A stretch of 63,997 nucleotides of DNA, filler included, from Diploschistes diacapsis (GCA_023645945.1; 5 parts of 5 records of this genome joined end to end with filler, not necessarily neighbours in it); one strand, 5' to 3'; shown: positions 1 to 63,997, numbered from the whole stretch's first letter. A program made the numbers and translations. Notes: a model not told the origin generated them from the sequence alone.

Positions 1-38
1 GGGGGGGGGGGAGTAACTGCGGGCTTTGGATGTAAACA

Positions 39-1043
39 CTAAGTTGGATCTGCGTGTCTGACAGGCCCTGACACGGGTTGCATCCATGGCCAGAAGGCCC
101 AAGCGAGCGTCATTCCGAGCTTGAGCCCCGCGGTAATCCAAAGCACAGGCTCCACCCTTCCCGTCGCCTTCGATATCCACCCGCTGACGATGGAGCTAAC
201 CAAGAAAAGTAGAAACCCTGCGATGCGACGATTGCGCTTGACGTTGGCCTTGACCGGAGCCAGTATCGCTGCATCTGAGAACAGGTCGCAGAGCAGGCTC
301 GTTACCACGACCGTTGGGACTTCGTTGATGTTCATGGCTCTGCTGTTCACAATCTGACCGGCCGACTGGAAACTCAGGAGCGCGATCGGTATCAGTTCAT
401 TCCATACGACTATCTTATCCGCCTGCGCAGCAACGCGGCCGTCCACAACCCCAGTCTGAATGATAACAACAGAGACCACGATCAAGATGGTCTGCAGAAA
501 GAATGAAGTCATTAGGGTGCCGCGACGCTTGGCTGGGGGTAGCAAGGATGTGTTCAACCTCGCAAAGCAAAGAGTGCCAAGCGAATAGCAGCCAATGGAG
601 AGGAGCGAATTCGTCCAGCTGTAGGGCTTTGTACTCTGCCCCGATGCGCCAAGAGCAACGAAGATGGTGTTGCCTTCCAAGACACTCGTCAGCTGTTTTC
701 CTCGACAAGCAATTATGAGGGCAGATATGCTTTTTACCACCTACGTACCTGTTTGCATTGACACGAAAGTGCCGTACGCTTGTCCCAAGCCATCAGTCTA
801 TTACTTCCAGTCTTCTGCGGGGAGTTTACCGTTATATATGACAGTGTCGGTAAGCCCAGTAGCAATACAGGAGGCAAGAACTATCAGGTCGGTGTGGCGT
901 CCATCAACAGTGGCCTCAATATATCGCGAAATACTGGAGGTGGGCTGCGTTGCCAGCATCTTCTCGCTCGCTGGCATGGAAAGGGAAGACGAAGGCAGTT
1001 GTTGTGCTGCAGTCTTGTCCATCGGGAACGTGCTTAAGCGCAT
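39..1043 (-). CDS. DUF1275/YoaK-family multi-pass membrane protein (putative oxalate/organic acid exporter), 3 exons
   Basis: Joining ORFs 801..1079 and 39..740 through a short middle exon (GT..AG introns near 829-780 and 749-676) gives ...GLTDTVIYNAYGTFVSMQTGNTIFVALGAS...LLSFQSAGQIVNSR...VPTVVVTSLLCDLFSD...RNRRIAG, the typical fungal DUF1275 pattern with about six hydrophobic segments. Start uncertain (ATG 1043 or 1022). Confidence 0.85.
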
Positions 1044-1329
1044 GCAGTCCGTTTCAGTGGTTGGGTAAGGAATTCTCAACGTGACTGGGCCTTGTCGGCT
1101 TCCAATTTATAGCCGGGCCCTTCTTCAACTAATACGTGAAAGGGGCAGCAGTTCGTCGGACGACCGGAGACAGCCGGAGACAGCGGGCGAAGGCAAACAT
1201 ACCTACCCAGTCATATCAGAAGCCAGAGGGCTGAAGGCAGTATGGCCGTGGCAGGCAGAGATAACATTCGATATCGCAAATCTGAGAGAGGGAGGAGGGA
1301 GAGAGAGAGGAAAATGCAAGAAACACTAC

Positions 1330-2189
1330 GCCAAGAGGTTTTAAAGTGCTGCAGTCATGCCACGCCAAGACAACACGCCAAGCCAACAAAAACTATGCAG
1401 CATCATTTGATACCCAGCCAGCCCCCCCTGAGTGGTGTCTGGTGTCTGGCCGGAATGGGGAATGCAATGGAATGGATTGGTTAAGCCCGTTCTTTTCTTA
1501 GGATCCATCCTACTAGATCTTTTCGTTAAGAAATCAACCGCGCATTTCGTTGGCGCGCCAAACAGTCCCTCCATCATTCCTCCTGAGTGTGTGTGTATTG
1601 GCGTGGCAAGCTTGTGTAACCTTCCAAGCCTTTGCCCAGGGCTTAGTATATTGTATTGACGATAACGACACTTTAGTGTAGCCGGAGCAATTAATTGGTT
1701 CTCGACTTCTCACAACCCTTCAATGTCCAACTGCTGCAAGCCCAGACCGCTCGGTGATTGATGTATACAATTAGAGTGCTCCTTTGATCTTCTGAACTAA
1801 GCTTACCTTATGCAAATTGACCCACTTATCCGACTTGCCTTCAACATGTGGCAGCAGACAAGGTCGCTTTGCGTTTTGTTGGCCGCAAGTTTAGCTGCAG
1901 GCTTGCTGCTTCTTGTAGTTCTAGTATCGAGCCAAGGAACAGCAAAGCCCTGCCTGTTCGGGAGTGTTCAGGGCGACCGACATTGAATATCATCCTCTCT
2001 TAGTGTGCTTGACGGTACAATTCCGAAAATGGCAGAGCGTTGCTCGAGTAGTCGGTGAAGTCGGCCTAGGCCCTGTCAAGCTACGGTCTTGCCCATCAGC
2101 GTCTGTAAGTCGCGGCGGACAAGACTTGGGGTCTAGAATGAGCGTGCATATGCAGAATGATCTTCCTGCCTAGTTTGCACTCTGCCAAG
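1330..2189 (+). promoter_or_regulatory. Five GCCAAG (PacC/Rim101 consensus GCCARG) sites in the divergent promoter
   Basis: GCCAAG at 1330, 1364, 1377, 1931 and 2184; TATAAA at 2302 upstream of oah; TATA-like element near 1105-1111 on the minus strand upstream of the DUF1275 gene. Confidence 0.55.
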
Positions 2190-2450
2190 TGCTGCATTGC
2201 TGAATGAAGTGTGTGTGTGTGGGCGTGACAAAGGGAGAAAAGGGTGGTGTTGCTGTCTCGATGAATTGAACTAAAAAGCACTGGGCGGGAGGGCCCTCGA
2301 GTATAAAGGGGACGTAGAATCCCTTTGCCATAGGAGGAATAGCAAGGCATGCCTCTTATTGAGTTCTCCAACAACACTTACTTGCCTCTTTCACCGTCTC
2401 TTGAACCAAGAGAAGCATTCATCACACAGACCATTATTGCTCAGAAGCAA

Positions 2451-3690
2451 ATGACTCTGGCCCTTCCTTCCACTCCCACCACGACCATGTCTGTCGCCGA
2501 AACCATGATTCAATCCGAGACTATAACCAAGGCCGATCCTACCAACAAGGTACTTGACAGTATTATAAAGATCAAGGAAATCTTCGCGGACGAAAACCTC
2601 AGCATGGCTCTGTCCAAGCTCGAGTTACCTTCATCTCGAAATCCCACAGCCTACGACCCAATTGCGCTCGTCGACGCTCCCATGTCAGGCGCCGCGAAGC
2701 TGAAACGCATGCTCGAGAACGGCAATGAACTGATCGTCTGCCCCGGGGTCTACGATGGTCTGTCCGCTCGAGCAGCAATGGAAGTGGGATTCGATGCCTT
2801 ATACATGGTTTGTAACCCTCGTTCCCCCCCTACTAGAAAGAAACAAGAACGCTGACAACCTTTTGCAGACTGGAGCTGGCACAACTGCTTCGAGGCTGGG
2901 CATGGCAGACCTGGCCATAGCACAACTTCATGACATGAAGGAACATGCAGAGATGATTGCCAATTTGGATCCATTCGGTCCACCTTTGATCGCCGACATG
3001 GACACTGGCTATGGCGGTAAGGCCTCAGGATCCGAGCTCACAGTACAGAACTGATTTTTGTCTGCAGGCCCCATCATGGTCGCCAACTCCGTCGCCCAAT
3101 ATATCCGTGCCGGGGTCGCCGGCTTCCACATCGAGGACCAGATCCAGAACAAGCGCTGCGGGCATCTGCAGGGCAAGAAAGTGGTACCCGCCGACGAGTT
3201 CTACCAGCGCATCAGGGCCGCAAAGGGCGCCAAAAATCGACTCCGATCGGACATTGTTCTGATCGCTCGGACTGATGCACTCCAGTCGCTCGGCTACGAA
3301 GAATGCATCAAGCGGCTCAAGGTAGCGAGAGAAATCGGCGCCGACGTCGGCCTCCTCGAGGGTTTCACGTCCAAGGAGATGGCAAAGCAGGCCGTCCAAG
3401 ACCTCGCTCCTTGGCCATTGCTGCTGAACATGGTGGAGAACGGAGCATCGCCCATCATCACCACGGCTGAAGCGAAAGAGATGGGCTTTAGGATCATGAT
3501 ATTTTCCTTCGCATCGATTGCTCCCGCGTACGTGGCCATTCGAGATTCACTCCAAAGGTTGAAGAAGGAGGGGATCGTTGGCACCAGCAAGGACTTGACT
3601 CCTCGCAAGCTCTTTGAAGTCTGCGGCTTGAAGGACTCAATGATGATCGATATCGAAGCCGGAGGGATGGCTTTTGCAGACGGGGTGTAG
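2451..3690 (+). CDS. oahA: Oxaloacetate acetylhydrolase (isocitrate lyase/PEP mutase superfamily), 3 exons
   Basis: Introns 2808-2868 and 3017-3067. Spliced motifs CPGVYDGLSAR, YMTGAGTTASRLG, ADMDTGYGG, HIEDQ..KRCGH, ARTDA, NMVENG and MIFSFA (Ser here distinguishes OAH from dimethylmalate lyase, which has Pro). Start could be 2451 or 2487. Confidence 0.9.
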
Positions 3691-4875
3691 GCAGAGCTCA
3701 GGGTTTGATTTGCGGCTGCTCTTGGTGTGACCTGTATCACTTTGCATGGAACATAACGCATTTGCATAGGGGTTCGGGGGTGTTCTAAGATTCTAGACAA
3801 TGATTTTTAGTATATATAGTTCCAAGCATATCGACACAGAAGCTAGAGGATCCTAATGTTATCGCTGCGGCTTCACGCCTTCAAACTCCCTTTTTCTTGC
3901 CCTCTTCGGCGGATTGAGTTCTGTGAGAGATGTGTCCGGCGTAGTGCCTTGGCTGGAAACCGCTTTTGTCAGTCAAAAATTCCTGGTCCGCGATTGGTTG
4001 TAAGGGTGGAATATTCCCTAGCGTGGGACTGGAGCCTTTTCCGATTGCACGAAGCGTTTGAAATCCCGGGCAAAGCGGTAATGCATCAAGTCAATTCATG
4101 AACTCTCTGCTTAGGGGCTGCGCTTAAATCTCGGTAAACCTTCAGGATGAATTGATACGGTTTCCATTTGCCAGCCCCTCATCAGCTAATCGCCCCCAGC
4201 AATGTATGTCGTAGCTTGTTCCATCAATGACAGGGGTAGGAGCCGAAGATTCTCACCATTTGAGGGTCGAGTGATGTAGAGAAGGCTAAAATAGTACTGT
4301 TGAGGGCATCCTGACGATCGGCAAGTATGTGGAGGATCACAAATGAACGAACGGCTATTGCCAGGCTATGAACATTTGGTCGATCAGTAACGTTTAGTGC
4401 TGCTACTTCGCCGCTTTTCACGTCGCAAGTGAAGACGGGAACTTGGTCTGTTGCAACTGAGTGTCCATGAGCAGGATTGTGTGGCGATCGAAGGCTTTAC
4501 ATTAACCCTCGATGGCCTATCTGCAGTGGAATATGTTGCTGTTTAACGCTCTGTTCCTAATTTGTTAACAACACTTCCTCAGGGAAGTAAGTATCATATG
4601 ATGAAATGAGCGGGAGCGACCATGGGTGCTTTGATATCCACATTTCTGTGGTTGCCCAGTATCTGTCTGAGCTGCTCGGATCGCGATAACTGACCAGGGA
4701 TGAAGGCACTTAAGCGGGGGGTTTGAGATGCTCAATCGGAGGAGTATCGATGCTTAAGTACGGTGCGCGGTACACGTGTGGTCAAAAAAAGAATGGACCG
4801 CGCCCGGGTACGGCCGCCGGCAATTATTGACGTTAGTGTTCACTGGAGAAGCAAGCGCGCGACTCCCTATCACTA

Positions 4876-5688
4876 TTACTTATGATAAATGATTTCTCCA
4901 CTAGGGAGCACAATAAGCGCATCCTTCGCAGTCGACCACTCTCGCCACACAAGCGAGATGCGCTCGAGTTCCGAATGCGGCGCCAGCCCATGCTGGCGAA
5001 CCGTGTCCGCGAAGCTAGAATGCAACGCGCGATCAACCCACGACTCAGCAAACTGTGCCGCTCTGCTCCCCACATACCGCCATGAAGTCCAAGATGCCTG
5101 GATACTCCCTGGGTCGAACCCGGCTTTCCGAGCCCATACATGCAGATGGCGGCCTGCGTTCGGCTCGCCCTTGCTGGCTCTAGCAGCCGATTGATACAAG
5201 TCCGCCCATTGCTGGATCCCATCGAACTCGGGATACCAGGCGAAGGATTTGTAGTCGGCTTCGCGAGCGGCTACGATTCCGCCTGGCTTGGCGACGCGGA
5301 GCATCTCCTTGAGTATGCCCACGGGGTCCTGCACGTGCTGGAGGACCTGGTGGCAGAAGACGACGTCGAAGTGGTCGTCTGAGTACTGCAAGTCGTTGGC
5401 GTCCAGAATGATGAACTTGGCGTTTGTGAGGTTTCTCGATTTTGCAAGCGCTCGAGCCTGTGACAGGACGGTCTCGACCACATCGCCTCCTTCGACTCGT
5501 CCATGTGGCACCAGGGCGGCGAGATCGAGGGTGATGGTTCCAGTCCCGCATCCGATGTCTAGGATCGAGAAGTTTGGCTGGATGTGAGGGATGAGGAAGG
5601 CGGCAGAATCCTGAGCCGTGCGCCTAGAGTGGTCTTGAGTGACGGACTTGTGATGGCCATGGAGGTATACGGCGGCTTCTTTACTCAT
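4876..5688 (-). CDS. Class I SAM-dependent methyltransferase (UbiE/COQ5-like)
   Basis: Intronless 270-aa ORF with ILDIGCGTGTIT motif I, FDVVFCHQVLQH and LRVAKPGG. Confidence 0.9.
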   Translation of the reverse strand: MSKEAAVYLHGHHKSVTQDHSRRTAQDSAAFLIPHIQPNFSILDIGCGTGTITLDLAALVPHGRVEGGDVVETVLSQARALAKSRNLTNAKFIILDANDLQYSDDHFDVVFCHQVLQHVQDPVGILKEMLRVAKPGGIVAAREADYKSFAWYPEFDGIQQWADLYQSAARASKGEPNAGRHLHVWARKAGFDPGSIQASWTSWRYVGSRAAQFAESWVDRALHSSFADTVRQHGLAPHSELERISLVWREWSTAKDALIVLPSGEIIYHK

Positions 5689-6099
5689 ACTGCCTAGTTA
5701 TGTGTATCTGTTCCTTGCTGCAAGCCTCGAGTAGTCCAGTGTAACCCCCTTATATACTTAGCAGTCTTTTCCTAGACAGGACAAATTAGAGGATGACTAA
5801 CGCTCCGACATCGGCGCTGCGAGACATTGCTAAGAGGTTGAGCAACTGAGCTATCGAAGAAAATAAAGCCAATAATGAGAAAGTGTTCCCATGCAAATCT
5901 GCAACAATTGGTGACTTCCACGCTCGGAACAGCTTTACCATAGCAGATAGTACGGGCGTTCGGATGTGTGGTAAAGCGCAACATGAGGGCATTGAAGGTC
6001 TTACCATGAGATATCCCGCTGGAACAAACGCACTTAACAGCACTAAAAGATATTCTGTGTATTTTATGATGCGAGAAGAGTTGGATTGCTTCCGACTCG

Positions 6100-8822
6100 G
6101 TAAGAAGTACGGAAAGATCCAGGCCCAGCCTCAATAACGGCAGCAAAGCAAGTTTTCATTTTGCATAGCGTCGACCCCGGCGCAAGAATTATCGGGACGC
6201 ACCGCAGCCCGCCAGCTCCTACTACAAGGCTACTAGTTCTTAATACATATAAATCGGATGGCAAAGGACATCCAATGCTCGCTGGAATGGTACAGCAAGC
6301 AGAATATGAACAAATCGTGAAGGACTGATAGATCAAGCTCATAGTAAGACTATCGCTGGCCTTTACTAACTTAATGAAAGTGTCGAAACTACTTAGCAGC
6401 AAATGTAACAGCCGACCGATGCGCACGGTTCAATGTCGTTGACAGGAACTTGACACCCCCAATACGGGTAACCTTGCAGCTTAATGTGCTTCAGAGCAAC
6501 CTGTGTTTTAGCAGGAGCTTCTTCAAACATCGTTCTCACTGCATCAGCGTTTCCAAGAGCGACTGTACATTCAAGCGCGGTGGTGTGCTCCATATCAGAC
6601 TGCGGCGGCGAGGCTCCAAGACACAAGAGTATTTTGGTTGCACCAAGCGACACTTCTGGCAGCTAAAACTAGAGTCATGATCGCAGCACGCGGGGTTGCG
6701 TCGAAATCATTCATGAGCTTGGTAGGTAAGAGAATCTCGGCTCCAAACTTGCCGGTTAGTATTTTGATCAACTCCAAGTGACCACCTAGGATGCACAAAT
6801 GGAGAGGCGATACTGGCGAATCCCAGGCAAGCACGTTAGATGTCGGGCTTAGTCATCTTTGACTACCTGCTCTGCGTCCACCGTATGGCTTGGTTGCCGC
6901 AAGATTGCTAGGGGACTGGGAGCCTGAGTTTTTGTAGACTCGGCACGTTTCGTGATATCATTCCTTTCGGCTTCCGCTTCTTCGTTAGCCTCAGACTTTT
7001 CGAGCAGTATTTCGACGATCTCTGCGTTTCCACGTACGCAGGCAAGGTGCAACGCTGTCATGCCATCCGTTAGACGAGCGACGATTCGAGCACCCCGCGT
7101 TGACCAGACACTTCACAACACTCAGAGATGCCACCTGGCACGCCAGATGTAACGGAGTCCTTTCCGTATAATCGCGCCTGTTCAGATTTATGTCTGAGAC
7201 AGATGTTGACCATTGCTCAACATAGGCAAGATCACCATTGACGATGGCCTGGCAGAGTGCTTCGGTGTTGCCAATGTAGGCCTGGTCAGTTCAATCCTCG
7301 CTGGTAAGAGTGTTAAAAAAGCCAATAGTTCTGCCTGCCCGGATCATTCACCATGAATTCTAGGTCTCCTTTGGCATAGATCTAGTTCTCTTCTGCGGCA
7401 GCTTCTCGTTCTCCGTCCCCAGAAGGCCCCGGGCAGTTTGTGCGGCAGTCTCTGACTACATACTCAGCCTCTCCGATGAAGGTTGACTGCTCGGTCCGGC
7501 TCAACGTTCCATTCAGCGTTGAGTAGCATATCCTTTGTGAAAAGTAGCTTTTCGATTTTCTGGGCGGTAAAACGCGGCCCGTAGGGAATTGCGAAGGAAT
7601 GGTAGTTGGACATGTCGTCCTCAAAGTCCAATTCCGCGACATCCTCAGGATCCTTGTCTTTGAAGTTACCATGCACCTTGCTGCCCCATTGATTGCGGCC
7701 ATACATGTCTATGGTGAGTTCTGCCACGCTCTTCACGACGCTGATTAAGGTACTCGTCCCTGTTTGATTCCTTGGGTAATCTCTCCAGCACTAATAGCTT
7801 GGCCAAGCCTTGCACACGTGCAAAAGACCGCTCAAATATTGTTGTATGAGTACGATCGCGCTCCGGGTCAGACCAGAGTGCCTCGAAACCCCGTCATCCA
7901 TGCTTGCTGAGTCAACCCTCACAACTCGGAGACCTCCTCGATAAGTCTATAGTGTTGCATTGGCTCATGAATGCGGCAACCCCACGAGGCGTGCCATATA
8001 CTTGGCTTCCATACGCAAAGCAGCTTTAGTCGACACTGTATCCAAATTAGATACCCTCAAAAGGAAATAGTCAGGTAACAGACTCGAAGCCGGTGAGAAT
8101 CTCCGAAACAGAATTGTAGAGACGCAAAACGATCTGCACATGACGCGTCAGGCATTGAGAGGCAATAGTTATGGCTTTCATTGAATTAGCGCATATTGTA
8201 CCTTCAGTGGTTCAAGTCCTACTGTACCTATGAACAATGACCGTTGTCTCTGCCAAAATGGAATCTCATACAAAGCGTTCAATCGGTTCGATGGCCGCAT
8301 TTCATTAAGACCCTAAATGAAGATATTGACGTCGCTCCAGGGTGTCAGCTTCTCGTGGTAGTAGTGTCGCAATGATTTCTTGGACTGACCGTGGGACCGG
8401 CAAGAGCGCTGTGAAAACAGCCGAGCCAGCCACCACGACGTTTTTCCAATCTGAATCGTCCAAGATATGATTCGGATAAGATGTCAAAATTCTTTTTAAA
8501 CGCGGTTAGGCTCAGAACAACAGCCAGACTCCCTTCTGCCTTACGATCATCCTCCAACGGCATAGTGTACTTCTCCTTGAGCGATTCATCCCCTAAGTCG
8601 TGGGCTCGGACTCGGACGTCACACTTGTCTCCATCGAAAACCGGGACAACGTTGACATGGGGGTCCTGAACCATTGGGTGATCTCTGATTTGAGCAAGCA
8701 ACTCACGCAGCCTCATACACATTGAAGTGAGCAACAAGGTCAGTCAAAAATTTGGTTGGGTTCTTCTTGGGGTACGCAATGAATTGATCATGAGAAGCTG
8801 GAAGATCTGGAAGGGGGGCCAT
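6100..8822 (-). pseudogene. Decayed large ankyrin-repeat protein with N-terminal nucleotidyltransferase-like region
   Basis: Colinear fragments in changing frames with stops: MAPLPDLPASHDQFIAY (ATG 8822), DWKNVVVAGSAVFTALLPVP, SDVNIFI*GL, FAIPYGPRFTAQKIEKLLFTKDMLLNAEWN, MTALHLACVRGNAEIVEILL, SPLHLCILGGHLELIKIL. 3' boundary approximate. Confidence 0.75.
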
Positions 8823-9473
8823 AATGACTTCTACAGAGCAATGAGCTCGTATGTCAAGTGCCGTATAAGGTGGCAGGAGTTGTACTCCTGTAGGAGTAGA
8901 AAGAGATTCGAGCTTTGTGAGCTTATTCAAGAGACGGAGAACGACTCTGCTCTTTATACTTCACATTGGGTATATCGAATCAGGCCATTAAGAGAAGATT
9001 TTGATATTGTAACCGGCTATCCAGGCAGCAGTACGTTAGACACGCGTCGTCACGTGATTCTCGCTTGGCAGATCAATCTTATGGACAAGCTAGCAGTGAT
9101 CCTTCATCAAGATCAGCGATGGCTACGTAGGCACGCCGTGCATTATGGGTCTGCGGTGGTCTGAAAAGACTGGAATCGAGCAGGTTGGAGATAATTCAAG
9201 CCAGGCAGCCGAAGGATGAAAACATAGAGCCCTTCAGTTGAAGTCCCTGCCCGAGTCCGAGATCCAGCCGAAAATACTAAGCCATAAGTGGATGGTTTAG
9301 CGAGCCGGAGGGGGGCGATGACGGGCGCGTGCGCTACTGATCTCCTTGTTATCAGCCAAATTCTTTGACAGCATTGGTATCACATCCCCTCAAAATGTGA
9401 CCTACTCCAGTGCACCTCCCTTATCTCATATAACTGCACTGCGCGAGTCGCGACTGATGACTGTGCTGCATTA

Positions 9474-11402
9474 ATGGCCACAGAACCAGAACCATGGCAG
9501 CCGCAAACTGTCACAAACAAAAGCCACGGTGCAATGAACGAACCTGGAAAGCACCACCAGACATTGGAGAGATATACTGACCCCAAGATGCTTACTTTGT
9601 CACCATCGCCTATGCTCCTGGAGCCTTGTAAGGCGGCGAAAGACGACAGCGCTCTCTCGACGCCAACTACCCCCAGACGACCAAATGTTTCGAGAGGGCT
9701 GTCTTTACAATTGCCAAAGCAAGACGTGACGAGTCCGAGCGCAGCGAAGCTCACGCACAATCTCATGATACCAGCTCCACTATCTCCGCAACTCGATCCA
9801 TCGACCTCATTCGGATCAACCATCTCACCTTCGGTCCTGCCCCGACGTTCTCGAGGTTTGGATTTTTCAAGAGCTTGTACTCATCTGCATCACTCGACGC
9901 TTGCAGACCAGTCTTCTCCCGACTCCTCGCCGGTAATAGGTGGCAAGGGCGTCAACATTCCCCGCAGAGGGGGTTCAGGCGCGGACTCGCCCATGTATGC
10001 GGGAAATTTATGGTCAACGATGAGTTCGGAGAAAGTTATGTCGAGCTCCATGGGAAGCGTCAATATGATGGAATCGGGGGAGTCAACTGATTCGGATGAG
10101 GATATGCTCAGGGGCGGTGAAGAGGAAGACACTATCCACATGACACCACAGCCCTACAGGGCAAGCTTTTCAGTGTTCAGTCAAGCAGCGGCTCCCAGTC
10201 CAGGCTTCGACCCGTTGAATAGTTTTTCGCCGACGGCTGTAAACCTCATGAGTTTCAAGCGCAGGTCACGGAGTAGTCGCACACGGGACATGCGCAAAGG
10301 GTCAAGCAGCACCAGTCTTCAGAGCTCCTTGCCTAGTCCTGGGCCTCTTTCACCACCCCTTAGGAGCGTAGAACACTCTGGGAACAACTATTTCGCTAAG
10401 GACATAGAACAGAAGAGCGTAGAGTCGCGAAGGGAGTCTCTCAGCCTGGGCACAAACGAGCTACGCATTTCAGACACAGTCGACGGGGACGGCAGGCTCG
10501 CACGGAATGGCTCTTACGATGCATTGGGCCTTCCAAATCCTCAAGTGGTGAGGCGAGCAGTCACACGAAGGAGCAACATGCTCGTGAGTTTAGACAATAA
10601 TAGACGTGATTGAACGTGACATTAACTTTTCCAGCCTAAGCCAAAGACCTTTGCCCGAATACGTGCCGCTTTGCGGGAAGAGATATCGCCCGTTGACACT
10701 GAATGCCGCCGTGAGGCAGAAGTGATCCGCCAAGTCCGCGAGAGCGAGCCTAGCCCCGCGGAACACAATGCCGGTTCCTTGCAGAGCATGACCGGTGCTT
10801 CATTCCCTGCACCGGCGGAGGCACTCGAAGAGCTCAGCGAAATCATCAACAAAAACACCTCGAGACATCCGTCTTCAACTTTCACACAACAGGCCGTAAA
10901 AAACTCTGGAGGCTCCGAGTTCTGGAACAATTTCGATGAGAGGATCAGAACACCGCCACCTCCGTTTCCACTCAGAACAAACTCTACAATCAGCGACGAT
11001 ATAGCAATGGAGACACCTACATCAACGACGGCGCCAAGCGTCCCGCTGTTTCCGGCTGGCGCTTACAACTCCTCCCCATCCCGTTCCGCAACGCCGCAGC
11101 CGGCCGCCACGGTAGGTGAATATACGCGCAAAACGCTAGGCAAGCGCCGCCGCGACGACGACTTTGACCCAGCATTATTCAAGCGCCGTGCCGTTTCTCC
11201 GGGCCTCAGTCTTCAGAACAGTCCCCTCCTACCCCCTTCTCCAGCACAGCGCGAGGGCGCCTGGTGGCAGACAAAGGCACATAGGGAGAGCTCAGCCAGC
11301 AGTAACAGCAATAGCATCTCTAATGGCACTGTCGGAAAGAGAATAGGGATGCAGGGTATGAATGACACGCATGACAGCTTAATGAACATGAGCATCGAGT
11401 GA
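9474..11402 (+). CDS. Conserved fungal Ser/Pro-rich, probably disordered protein of unknown function, 2 exons
   Basis: ORFs 9474..10613 and 10671..11402 join through intron 10584-10634 (GTGAGT...CCAG) giving RRSNML-PKPKTFARIRAAL; conserved-looking blocks PRRSRGLDFSRACTHLHHSTL, FKRRAVSPG. Confidence 0.8.
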
Positions 11403-11755
11403 ATAGGAATAGTAATGGTTGGTCAGAGTTGGCTTTGGCGTAGGAGGATGATTTTTTGTGATATGTGATACCCTTGGGACACTGTACTGCGTTGTTGTAG
11501 AAATTACATTGTAATTTTGGAGTTCGCCGAAGGGGCTAAGAGTCTCTGCATCATGCTTGGTTTAATAATGAAACTCAACTCCTGTTAACTAACTAAGTTA
11601 ACTTTTGTGTCGAATGTGTATAAGCCGTAACCGAGGCTCATTCCTTCGACGTCATCAACCGACCTTCTTTCCAGTTATTACGATTCACCAAGAACTTCTA
11701 CACATTTACACTCTCCTGACAATTGATCCTATTTCTTTGACGACACTGATCCAAA

Positions 11756-12262
11756 ATGCGAGTCTCGGTTCGTTCGCTAGCGATCCCCTCCGCGCCTCCC
11801 CCCAGCTCTTCTCTGCGATCTGCACCACTTGCTCTCCTTCCGCCCATTCCACTTTACAGGCGGCTACTTCGAGCCCACCGCAAGTACCTGCCAAAGGAGA
11901 TGCGCCTTTTAGGCGACGAGTATATCAAGAGTGAATTCCGATCCCACCGGAACGTTGAGAATCCTATGCATATTGTATGCGTGTTTGATTGTTACCGTTT
12001 GATGCATGTGTCGTAGGTTTTGGCTAACGCTTGTAGATCGGCTTTCTGACAGAGTGGCAAATGTATGCTCAAAAAATAGAAGGCAATGCGTGGAAAGGAG
12101 ATAAGCTGGACAGGGGAAAGATTGATAAGATGAGCGGTTTGTTAGCCCTGTGATTCTAGAAGAGCTACGCTGATGATAGTGATAGATCAGCAACTCGGCC
12201 AACTGTATGAGCTGATGCAGACAATTCAAAGAAGAGAAGACGGAGGCGAAGGAGAAACTTAA
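11756..12262 (+). CDS. SDH7: Succinate dehydrogenase assembly factor 3 (ACN9/Sdh7, LYR-motif protein), 3 exons
   Basis: [33 protein letters not shown]; introns 11975-12036 and 12137-12185 give [12 protein letters not shown] and [12 protein letters not shown]-terminal mitochondrial-type presequence. Confidence 0.9.
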
Positions 12263-12960
12263 AGAAAGCTCGAGACAGAGGTTGTTGGGCCGTGATCGCT
12301 CTTTACAGGCGCCAGCGTTAAACAGCCATCGAATATGACGAGACTCACCCCACAGAGTCAACCATATGGCCGTGGGCATGACTCTATACTCCGACTCTTT
12401 CGTCCCTGAACAAAGCATTATGTATGGCCTGGGCCTCTACTCACCTTGGTTACTCAAGCCCGAATGGCTGTCGATGCGTCAAAGTAGTGGTTGAGAAGAC
12501 CGAGGATTACGGTCACAAACCACAGAGCCTCACCATCGAGGAACGATCGCACGGACTATTGAACTCTCTACACAGCGCAGGAATCCAACTTTCCAGCAAT
12601 CTGCGTTCCAGGAACCGAAATCCTAGGTGTCTCCAAATCCTCGACCCTCTCTCGGCTCTAGATTCTTCAACTTCTTGTTGACAGGGAACAATCTCTAAGA
12701 CCGAGGCCATCTTCTTGTCCTCGGGGTCCCTGAGTCCATTGCTCACGTTAAGCTCCGCACGTCAGCATACCACGAGACGATCTCGATTCCCCACTATCTT
12801 CTTTTTCCACACCAACGCCTTCTAACCATCTGAACATCCCACCTCGCACACTCTCCCCTTTCACCTTTACGCCTTCCGTCTTTCGCCCCACGATCCCCAT
12901 CCTCCGGCCCCTCCCGACTCTTATCCACTCGCCATCAACCCAACATAGCAAAACTACAAA

Positions 12961-13200
12961 ATGTGCCACTACACCCCCCACAAATCAACAACATGCCCAC
13001 ACCTCTGGTTCACCCTCTGCACCCCATGTTCCGCCAGTGCCAACTTCAGCACCTGCCCCTCCCTGCGCGACTCCACGCTCCTGCGCCCCCGCGCCGAGCT
13101 GGGCACACCCGTCGGCGTGGCGCACGAGTGTCCTGAGTGCGATAAAGGAGGGGAGTATGACAGTGACGCGGTAAGGATGGTGGAGCGGTACGAGGGGGGG
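12961..13200 (+). CDS. Small Cys/His-rich hypothetical protein, 3' truncated by contig end
   Basis: MCHYTPHKSTTCPHLW...C..C...TCP...CPECD; good ATG context after a pyrimidine-rich leader; runs into the N spacer. Confidence 0.55.
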
Positions 13201-13300
13201 NNNNNNNNNNNNNNNNNNNNNNNNNNNNNNNNNNNNNNNNNNNNTTAATTAATTAANNNNNNNNNNNNNNNNNNNNNNNNNNNNNNNNNNNNNNNNNNNN
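13201..13300. other. Artificial contig spacer (N44-TTAATTAATTAA-N44)
   Basis: Exactly 100 bp; central 12-mer gives stops in all six frames; identical to three other spacers. Confidence 0.97.
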
Positions 13301-26499: not shown

Positions 26500-26599
26500 N
26501 NNNNNNNNNNNNNNNNNNNNNNNNNNNNNNNNNNNNNNNNNNNTTAATTAATTAANNNNNNNNNNNNNNNNNNNNNNNNNNNNNNNNNNNNNNNNNNNN
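26500..26599. other. Artificial contig spacer
   Basis: N44-TTAATTAATTAA-N44. Confidence 0.97.
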
Positions 26600-39786: not shown

Positions 39787-39886
39787 NNNNNNNNNNNNNN
39801 NNNNNNNNNNNNNNNNNNNNNNNNNNNNNNTTAATTAATTAANNNNNNNNNNNNNNNNNNNNNNNNNNNNNNNNNNNNNNNNNNNN
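39787..39886. other. Artificial contig spacer
   Basis: N44-TTAATTAATTAA-N44. Confidence 0.97.
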
Positions 39887-53035: not shown

Positions 53036-53135
53036 NNNNNNNNNNNNNNNNNNNNNNNNNNNNNNNNNNNNNNNNNNNNTTAATTAATTAANNNNNNNNN
53101 NNNNNNNNNNNNNNNNNNNNNNNNNNNNNNNNNNN
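53036..53135. other. Artificial contig spacer
   Basis: N44-TTAATTAATTAA-N44. Confidence 0.97.
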
Positions 53136-63412: not shown

Positions 63413-63997
63413 CTAACTCACCTTCTTCTCCTCCTCCTCCTTCTCCTGTTCCTTCTCCCCCTGCTCCTCCTCCACCCCGTCCTTCTCCTTCTTCCCTTTC
63501 CCCTCCCTCTCCCCTTCCTCATCCTTCGCACACCCACAATCATAAAAGTCCCCAATCTTACTGCAATCAAACTCTTTCTTCCCCAAGCTCCTATTAACCT
63601 CATTATGCACATGGCACGCCCACACCGCCGCCACGCTCCGCGTCGCCACCTGCGGCGGAAACTTCTCCAGGATGCGCCTGAAATGCCCCGCGCACTCGCC
63701 GCACGGATACAGGCGCGCAAACAGGTGCACGTAGCTGAACAGCGCCGTGCGCTCGTCCGTGGTCGGCGCGTCCGGGAAGCGCGCCATCGTCGTGTGCAGC
63801 AGCTTCCACGCCGCGCGGCCCAGCTCGGCTTTGAGCGTCTCGTTGCCGAGTTTCGGCATGATGGCGCTGCCGGAGAGGGTGGATTCGGAGACGGAGACGT
63901 GGTGGATCGGGGTTTGGGCGTAGGCGAGCGGCGGGTCGTCGGGGTTGTTGTTATTGTTGTTGTTGTTGTTGTTAGGGGTGGGCGCGGTGTTTTGGGG
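63413..63997 (-). CDS. ERV2: FAD-linked sulfhydryl oxidase Erv2, 5' truncated at window end
   Basis: KAELGRAAWKLLHT, YPCGECAGHF, WACHVHNEVNRSLGK, C-terminal DCGC; poly-Asn (AAC)n upstream and acidic tail. Confidence 0.92.
   Translation of the reverse strand, partial: PQNTAPTPNNNNNNNNNNPDDPPLAYAQTPIHHVSVSESTLSGSAIMPKLGNETLKAELGRAAWKLLHTTMARFPDAPTTDERTALFSYVHLFARLYPCGECAGHFRRILEKFPPQVATRSVAAVWACHVHNEVNRSLGKKEFDCSKIGDFYDCGCAKDEEGEREGKGKKEKDGVEEEQGEKEQEKEEEEKKVS

Follow-up and report, generated by a model that had tools for sequence, protein, structure and literature searches.

Oxalate secretion lies behind Sclerotinia disease and the weathering of minerals by lichens and soil fungi, and oxalate is a by-product of Aspergillus niger fermentation. 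The coupling of an enzyme that makes an organic acid to an exporter of its own is known from the itaconate cadA-mfsA cluster, and the A. niger citrate exporter CitT/CexA follows the same logic; the citrate and itaconate exporters are full-size proteins of the major facilitator superfamily (MFS). Among the carriers described for oxalate, the oxalate:formate antiporter OxlT is a 12-helix importer with the MFS fold, and FpOAR of Fomitopsis palustris, like the plant proteins HbOT and AtOT, is a small membrane protein with a proposed role in oxalate export. No identified ascomycete oxalate exporter was found in the literature searched. In the available text of the two papers, a 2025 Magnaporthe study relies on predicted transporters (PMC11776485) and a 2026 yeast engineering study took FpOAR and plant proteins for oxalate export (PMC12960930).

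Here, we describe a divergent gene pair in a window of 63,997 nucleotides, filler included, from Diploschistes diacapsis (the window being the whole stretch of DNA that was analysed). One gene encodes an oxaloacetate acetylhydrolase (OAH) and the other a DUF1275 protein. We consider it probable that they form a PacC-controlled pair for oxalate synthesis and export, with the DUF1275 protein as the candidate exporter. An enzyme-plus-exporter pair is of a kind already known; the new element is the carrier, which unlike the citrate and itaconate exporters is half-size and belongs to an uncharacterised family. The literature search, which did not cover subscription journals so that a prior mention is possible, returned no report of OAH-DUF1275 linkage or of oxalate transport by DUF1275 proteins. 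Where DUF1275 was named in the available texts, the name was confined to a list, a table or a methods line, with no substrate and no link to OAH.

The head-to-head OAH and DUF1275 genes

The relevant part of the window, positions 1–13200, is a single contig (C4009) of a fragmented 29-Mb fungal assembly and carries both genes. An earlier note on this DNA had described an OAH gene with the serine of MIFSFA, head-to-head on one contig with a six-TM DUF1275 gene and sharing with it a promoter of about 1.4 kb. The gene models bear out this arrangement, with 1,407 bp between the start codons. The OAH model has two GT-AG introns, 375 aa and a single terminal stop, with MIFSFA at aa 312 and the serine at the marker column. 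The DUF1275 gene, on the minus strand, yields a product of 292 aa after splicing. The features are as follows.

2451..2807, plus strand, OAH exon 1 (spliced gene model)
2869..3016, plus strand, OAH exon 2, with ADMDTGYG (spliced gene model)
3068..3690, plus strand, OAH exon 3, with HIEDQ, KRCGH, IARTD and MIFSFA, Ser315 codon at 3505-3507 (gene model, PDB match)
830..1043, minus strand, DUF1275 exon 1, ATG at 1043, further in-frame ATG 21 nt downstream (gene model)
779..829, minus strand, DUF1275 intron 1, 51 nt, GT...AAG (gene model)
749..778, minus strand, DUF1275 exon 2, 30 nt, coding for the conserved TFVSMQTG (gene model)
674..748, minus strand, DUF1275 intron 2, 75 nt, GT...AAG with a rare acceptor, the upstream CAG giving a frame shift (gene model)
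39..673, minus strand, DUF1275 exon 3, from GNTIF through the stop (gene model, Pfam match)
1044..2450, no strand, common divergent intergenic region, 1,407 bp (between both start codons)
1106..1111, minus strand, TATAAA box on the DUF1275 side, facing the DUF1275 gene (sequence)
2302..2307, plus strand, TATAAA box on the OAH side, facing the OAH gene (sequence)
1330..1382, plus strand, three GCCAAG sites (1330, 1364, 1377), about 290–340 bp from the DUF1275 start (motif match)
1931..2189, plus strand, two GCCAAG sites (1931, 2184) on the OAH side (motif match)

Both DUF1275 introns of the window thus end in the rare AAG acceptor (674-676 and 779-781, minus strand); the second acceptor is CAG in six related loci (readable in six of nine).

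In the ICL/PEP mutase superfamily, serine as against proline at the marker column is the mark of OAH. The window enzyme contains a PEP_mutase/ICL domain with the KRCGH loop and the ED and ARTD motifs, and it shares the serine with the fungal OAHs (A. niger OahA, Sclerotinia Oah1 SS1G_08218, Botrytis Bcoah and PDB 3lye). The top PDB match of exon 3 is OAH 3lye (301.9 bits, IFSFA); 2,3-dimethylmalate lyase 3fa3 scores lower (277.4 bits, IFPFA, with proline at the marker column). Identity to the A. niger, A. clavatus, Botrytis and Sclerotinia enzymes is 73–78% over 285–298 aa; compared with the Aspergillus enzymes there is an extra N-terminal extension of about 35–50 aa, and function is a prediction. 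Judged by sequence, the window enzyme is nearer to the characterised OAHs than to dimethylmalate lyase and is a member of the OAH family. The genome has a second, divergent OAH-like gene (L010:2983-3525, contig C536; 49%), whose marker column holds proline and whose branch is long; its contig of 5.8 kb has no DUF1275 gene. No OAH-DUF1275 fusion was seen in 120 listed of 193 longer OAH hits or in 15 scanned DUF1275 proteins, mostly long ones.

Recurrence of the pair and its common promoter

Metagenome contigs were scanned with a DUF1275 alignment, blind to OAH; the best 80 of the 106 resulting loci were used. An OAH-type gene was present at 15 of these 80, always upstream and on the opposite strand (head-to-head), with gaps of 1.4–5.2 kb, and all 14 linked loci with the motif in view had serine at the OAH marker. 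Many loci were too short to judge; of the loci reaching 5.5 kb or more upstream, 15/37 were linked. The pair recurred in 11 of 53 metagenomic sequence groups at 90% identity, and because of this recurrence the pairing is far beyond chance. It persists while the flanks vary among the linked loci (caspase, aldehyde dehydrogenase, cyclin, Nup120, ETF and shugoshin, among 69 of 103 frames scanned). In 27 annotated genomes with both genes among the matches listed, the comparison was made by tags or accessions, which do not show orientation or unlisted paralogues; Apiospora arundinis, with too many copies to resolve, was left aside. Tags or accessions were adjacent in 14 of the 27: A. niger, S. sclerotiorum, A. 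fumigatiaffinis, A. clavatus, P. alfredii, Lachnellula cervina, L. arida, Hymenoscyphus fraxineus, Parahypoxylon, Xylaria grammica, Xylariales sp. No.14919, two Apiospora species and Paraphaeosphaeria minitans. The conserved linkage that the earlier note had put forward as a check was therefore found, divergent in 15/15 linked metagenomic loci and as adjacent tags in 14/27 genomes. Since four linked loci group with lichen-forming Lecanoromycetes in a quick OAH tree, and given the named genomes, the pair spans what we take to be five classes from the class names of the organisms.

The linkage follows the phylogeny of the DUF1275 copies. In a tree of 71 rows, with L067 left out (short match) and two rows labelled linked solely because their contigs were of equal length, all OAH-linked copies including that of the window fall in one clade (support 99/95). 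OAH was in view at 10 of 14 long-flank representatives inside the clade versus 0 of 13 outside (Fisher p 1.5e-4, a value that overstates the significance because the rows are related). Outside the clade, 6 of 17 representatives (L043, L047, L052, L058, L062, L074) adjoin elongation factor 3, also head-to-head (72 of 111 frames scanned). Because these six DUF1275 loci adjoin an unrelated gene, conserved adjacency alone can be neutral, and the OAH pair could be an inherited neighbourhood of the same sort, with oxalate leaving through FpOAR-type or other carriers. The splitting of the pair in Botryosphaeriaceae and the presence of a VTT-domain gene in the genome would fit such an account. It is nevertheless very unlikely, as the pair is kept over the five classes despite the turnover of flanks, its orientation is constant (15/15), site enrichment in the shared regions is at least fourfold, and expression goes in the same direction in three datasets.

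The trees also suggest movement of the pair. The DUF1275 copies of Paraphaeosphaeria and Kalmusia are sister to Apiospora with a support of 99, and Dothideomycete monophyly was rejected (p-AU 1.5e-5, for a group chosen after the first tree). For OAH, too, the P. minitans copy groups as sister to Apiospora, with a support of 90 (sequences P0067, P0049, P0062 and P0540 for both genes). The simplest reading of these trees is that both genes moved jointly between fungal classes by horizontal transfer; hidden paralogy may account for the pattern instead.

The PacC consensus is GCCARG, which GCCAAG fits. In 12 shared regions, GCCAAG occurred 84 times, compared to 15.3 expected from shuffling or 18.7 from a dinucleotide model, and the ten most widely common 7-mers (in 11 of the 12 regions) all overlap it. 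The 700 bp nearest the DUF1275 end contained 29 sites versus 4.8 expected, in 12/12 regions, and the OAH end 18 versus 4.7, in 9/12. CreA-type sites showed no enrichment in the shared regions (121 versus 118). The intergenic region of the window, with its five PacC-type sites, would thus be a putative PacC-binding region. The locus L031 is 93% identical around the gene to the linked L023, whereas its upstream DNA differs and is without OAH and without any GCCAAG. L042 and L057 have 11 and 13 GCCAAG sites; their OAH may lie beyond the fetched flank. Both further predictions, enriched sites of the pH-regulator type in the common region and restriction of the linkage to a single clade of the tree, were confirmed. 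A paralogue of the OAH-linked clade in the genome of the window (L008:5018-8106, contig C4016) has 11 GCCAAG in 2.2 kb up to the contig end, with no OAH in view; any partner gene would have to lie beyond that end.

A PacC-driven promoter could also be shared merely because both genes serve the response to alkaline pH, the DUF1275 protein handling protons, ions or an unrelated solute and not oxalate. GCCAAG is found near the DUF1275 start in 12/12 linked and in 10/13 out-of-clade loci, the amplitude of DUF1275 expression is far below that of oah, and the C4016 paralogue has its 11 sites with no OAH in view, all of which would suit this explanation. PacC targets, however, do not need to be neighbours, the apparent joint transfer between classes and the oxalate decarboxylase partner of another paralogue (L079, see below) point to a common metabolite, and L031 lacks the upstream sites together with OAH. 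We therefore hold a pH response unrelated to oxalate to be quite improbable.

Some linked loci are more complex. An additional DUF1275 gene directly downstream of OAH (L028:12-415 and L055:3-409) places OAH between two copies, and a heterodimer is possible. In Eurotiales (L016, L018 and A. niger tags 63760-63810), the pair is within a larger shuffled block with NUP, DUF4440, 2OG-Fe(II) oxygenase and aldehyde dehydrogenase genes. The NUP gene (An10g00800) was rejected as a partner: it tracks oahA in one dataset and goes opposite in two (log2 -5.1; r -0.96), and the frames scanned contained it for 1 of the 11 linked groups. It is on the list of genes repressed at least fourfold in itaconate strains (PMC6320622, available part).

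In the remainder of the contig, an intronless class I methyltransferase gene (4876-5697, minus strand) is convergent with OAH; the frames scanned at the other linked loci (69 of 103) included no methyltransferase. An ankyrin-repeat sequence at about 6100–8100 (minus strand) is split into several short frames and is probably a decayed gene. The N spacers joining the contigs of the window are at 13201-13300, 26500-26599, 39787-39886 and 53036-53135.

The DUF1275 protein as a predicted half-size carrier

The window protein matches PF06912 (E 6.6e-24; 85.2 bits from exon 3 alone, for a cut-off of 25.4), and its hydropathy profile has five peaks above 1.3. Its A. clavatus orthologue, 51% identical, has a fold model (pLDDT 87.6) with six long helices; SMQTGNT and EIPTVVITS lie in two further, broken segments. 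This makes the six-TM description of the earlier note a fair one. In structure comparison the model fits one half of an MFS carrier, with YajR at Z 13.7, rmsd 4.0 and 167 aligned residues; 78 chains were at Z of at least 8, a Z of about 13 alone being borderline for helical bundles. OxlT (PDB 8hpj) was at Z 12.5, rmsd 3.9, with 176 aligned residues and 7% identity; unlike this importer, the window protein of 292 aa has no 12-helix chain and, by the model, six long helices. A sequence search for DUF1275 relatives of solved structure found none, the best Foldseek E was 0.039, and a search of the ESM Atlas returned DUF1275 clusters only. A two-fold internal repeat was looked for and not detected (hhalign probability 0.1). 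According to the available parts of PMC8154325 and PMC7778945, DUF1275/YoaK (TC 9.B.143) is a family of six transmembrane segments within the MFS superfamily, uncharacterised in TCDB; the PF06912 match and the fit of the orthologue model to one MFS half agree with this placement. The model suggests that the DUF1275 protein is a six-helix MFS repeat unit, half of an MFS-fold carrier. The polar residues conserved across 78 fungal DUF1275 sequences include D42, N59, T60, Q159, Q163, R168, T177, T181 and K239, and would fit a small anion site.

The earlier note had described FpOAR as a DUF1275-family member, which is wrong. In the available part of PMC9738940, from which the family assignment was taken rather than from the FpOAR sequence itself, the BLAST relatives of FpOAR have a SNARE_assoc domain, and the domain is marked in an alignment with FpOAR among its sequences. 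For the window protein and the A. clavatus orthologue, PF06912 was the one match, with none to SNARE_assoc/VTT, and homology to FpOAR was rejected. The likeness to FpOAR and HbOT/AtOT is thus one of proposed role, the families being different. As the candidate is not an FpOAR homologue, its case must stand on other evidence.

Expression and the case for oxalate export

Expression values were taken from table rows of published supplements, available in part. In three A. niger contrasts (PMC8224569), oah changed by log2 +1.07/+2.02/+1.93 and the adjacent DUF1275 gene by +0.52/+0.91/+1.26; among the matches listed, two DUF1275 paralogues were unchanged and a third was up in one contrast. Of six time points in Sclerotinia (PMC5372324), the last alone showed a rise, 5.6-fold for SS1G_08218 and 3.6-fold for SS1G_08219, which is annotated DUF1275. 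In a PkaC titration (PMC9151341), oah and the DUF1275 gene were in the same co-expression module, with r = 0.66 over 10 samples. None of the gene ids was present in the supplements of PMC5539119. From gene order, An10g00830 appears to be the A. niger DUF1275 gene (= ATCC64974_63790). Of the co-regulation that the earlier note had proposed, the common direction stands in these three datasets; the coupling is loose and one dataset is contrary.

Several observations weigh against the proposed export pair. In the itaconate strains (PMC6320622, available part), oahA was down about 180-fold and An10g00830 was missing from the list of genes repressed at least fourfold. In the PkaC titration the correlation had p 0.22 on five condition means, and the range was 1.0 log2 for DUF1275 versus 4.2 for oah. 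An unlinked Sclerotinia DUF1275 gene was also up, 2.7-fold, at the last time point (PMC5372324, same rows). Co-regulation therefore appears loose, in the same direction with a lower amplitude and a constitutive component. In 13 of the 27 annotated genomes the listed copies were not adjacent, being 2–487 numbers apart in eight (Ustulina, P. rolfsii, Monilinia, two Lasiodiplodia theobromae, one P. atrosanguineum and two Botryosphaeria) and on separate contigs in five (three Penicillium, L. hormozganensis and Neofusicoccum). Four in-clade loci have no OAH within 5.8 kb, and GCCAAG is mildly raised at out-of-clade loci too (11 versus 5.0 expected). The Z of the DUF1275 model to OxlT is close to that to many other MFS carriers, so that the model appears no nearer to OxlT than to them, and the genome has one VTT/SNARE_assoc match (PF09335), of the FpOAR kind, on a different contig. 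Lastly, in a sample of 301 bacterial genomes of one phylum, DUF1275 and oxc were at most 10 kb apart in 0 of 12 genomes, and DUF1275 and an oxalate decarboxylase gene in 1 of 7.

Oxalate linkage across the bacterial family is consequently not supported in this sample. An Acetobacter cluster has the order uctB-oxc-uctC-duf1275 (PMC3720670, available part), which counts in favour of the export pair. Among 38 neighbouring frames from 27 of 80 GTDB loci, the 80 being biased to the subfamily of the query, there was no oxalate enzyme, and three of six plasmid loci lie in hydrolase/amidohydrolase clusters. As bacterial members mostly have non-oxalate neighbours, the DUF1275 family is not oxalate-specific. 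In one sampled bacterial genome, DUF1275 follows FdhD at 6.2 kb from oxalate decarboxylase; this locus (L182:1364-15116) contains a catalase-like gene, cytochrome b561, FdhD, DUF1275, Mqo, cytochrome bd, a split oxalate decarboxylase and an FdhF/YdeP oxidoreductase, and looks like an acid-resistance island. Among the fungal paralogues outside the OAH-linked clade, one follows PurU (L094), and another (L079:3983-6600) is head-to-head with a bicupin gene scoring 243 + 236 bits on the two halves of an oxalate decarboxylase model, which supports the export pair. The tree sister of the L079 copy is a paralogue in the genome of the window, on contig C3896, with no cupin beside it.

The formate-related neighbours, namely PurU, oxalate decarboxylase (L079) and FdhD with the FdhF/YdeP-type oxidoreductase (L182), and the amidohydrolase/YcaC clusters suggest a family of small-carboxylate carriers, and a small-carboxylate theme for DUF1275 is plausible. 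The same neighbours would also suit a transporter that works with OAH but carries something else or sits elsewhere, for example one that releases acetate or formate, supplies oxaloacetate or malate, or sequesters oxalate in the vacuole; all the linkage and promoter evidence fits this equally. On the other side, the bulk product leaving the cell is oxalate, and acetate is reportedly re-used and not secreted, normally without accumulation in the medium (PMC8224569, available part). With no build-up of acetate in the medium, oxalate is favoured as the exported product, and we regard another cargo or place as unlikely.

For the PacC-controlled oxalate pair, we propose the following sequence of events. 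At neutral or alkaline pH, a PacC-type factor would bind the sites seen in the common region and turn on both genes. The enzyme, by the chemistry of its family, would split cytosolic oxaloacetate into oxalate and acetate. The DUF1275 protein, a six-helix MFS half in the model and probably acting as a dimer, would move the oxalate anion over the plasma membrane, and may be the main oxalate exporter or one among several. More tentatively, and with doubts that prevail for now, the OAH-linked DUF1275 clade could be the main oxalate exporter of filamentous ascomycetes, a dimeric half-size carrier of MFS fold from an oxalate/formate carrier family, forming with OAH a PacC-controlled and horizontally mobile two-gene module.

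The analysis provides one named candidate gene per model organism, An10g00830 in A. niger and SS1G_08219 in Sclerotinia. If the proposal is true, TC 9.B.143 would have its first substrate, a half-size MFS carrier would be available as a working example, and there would be a target for disease control.

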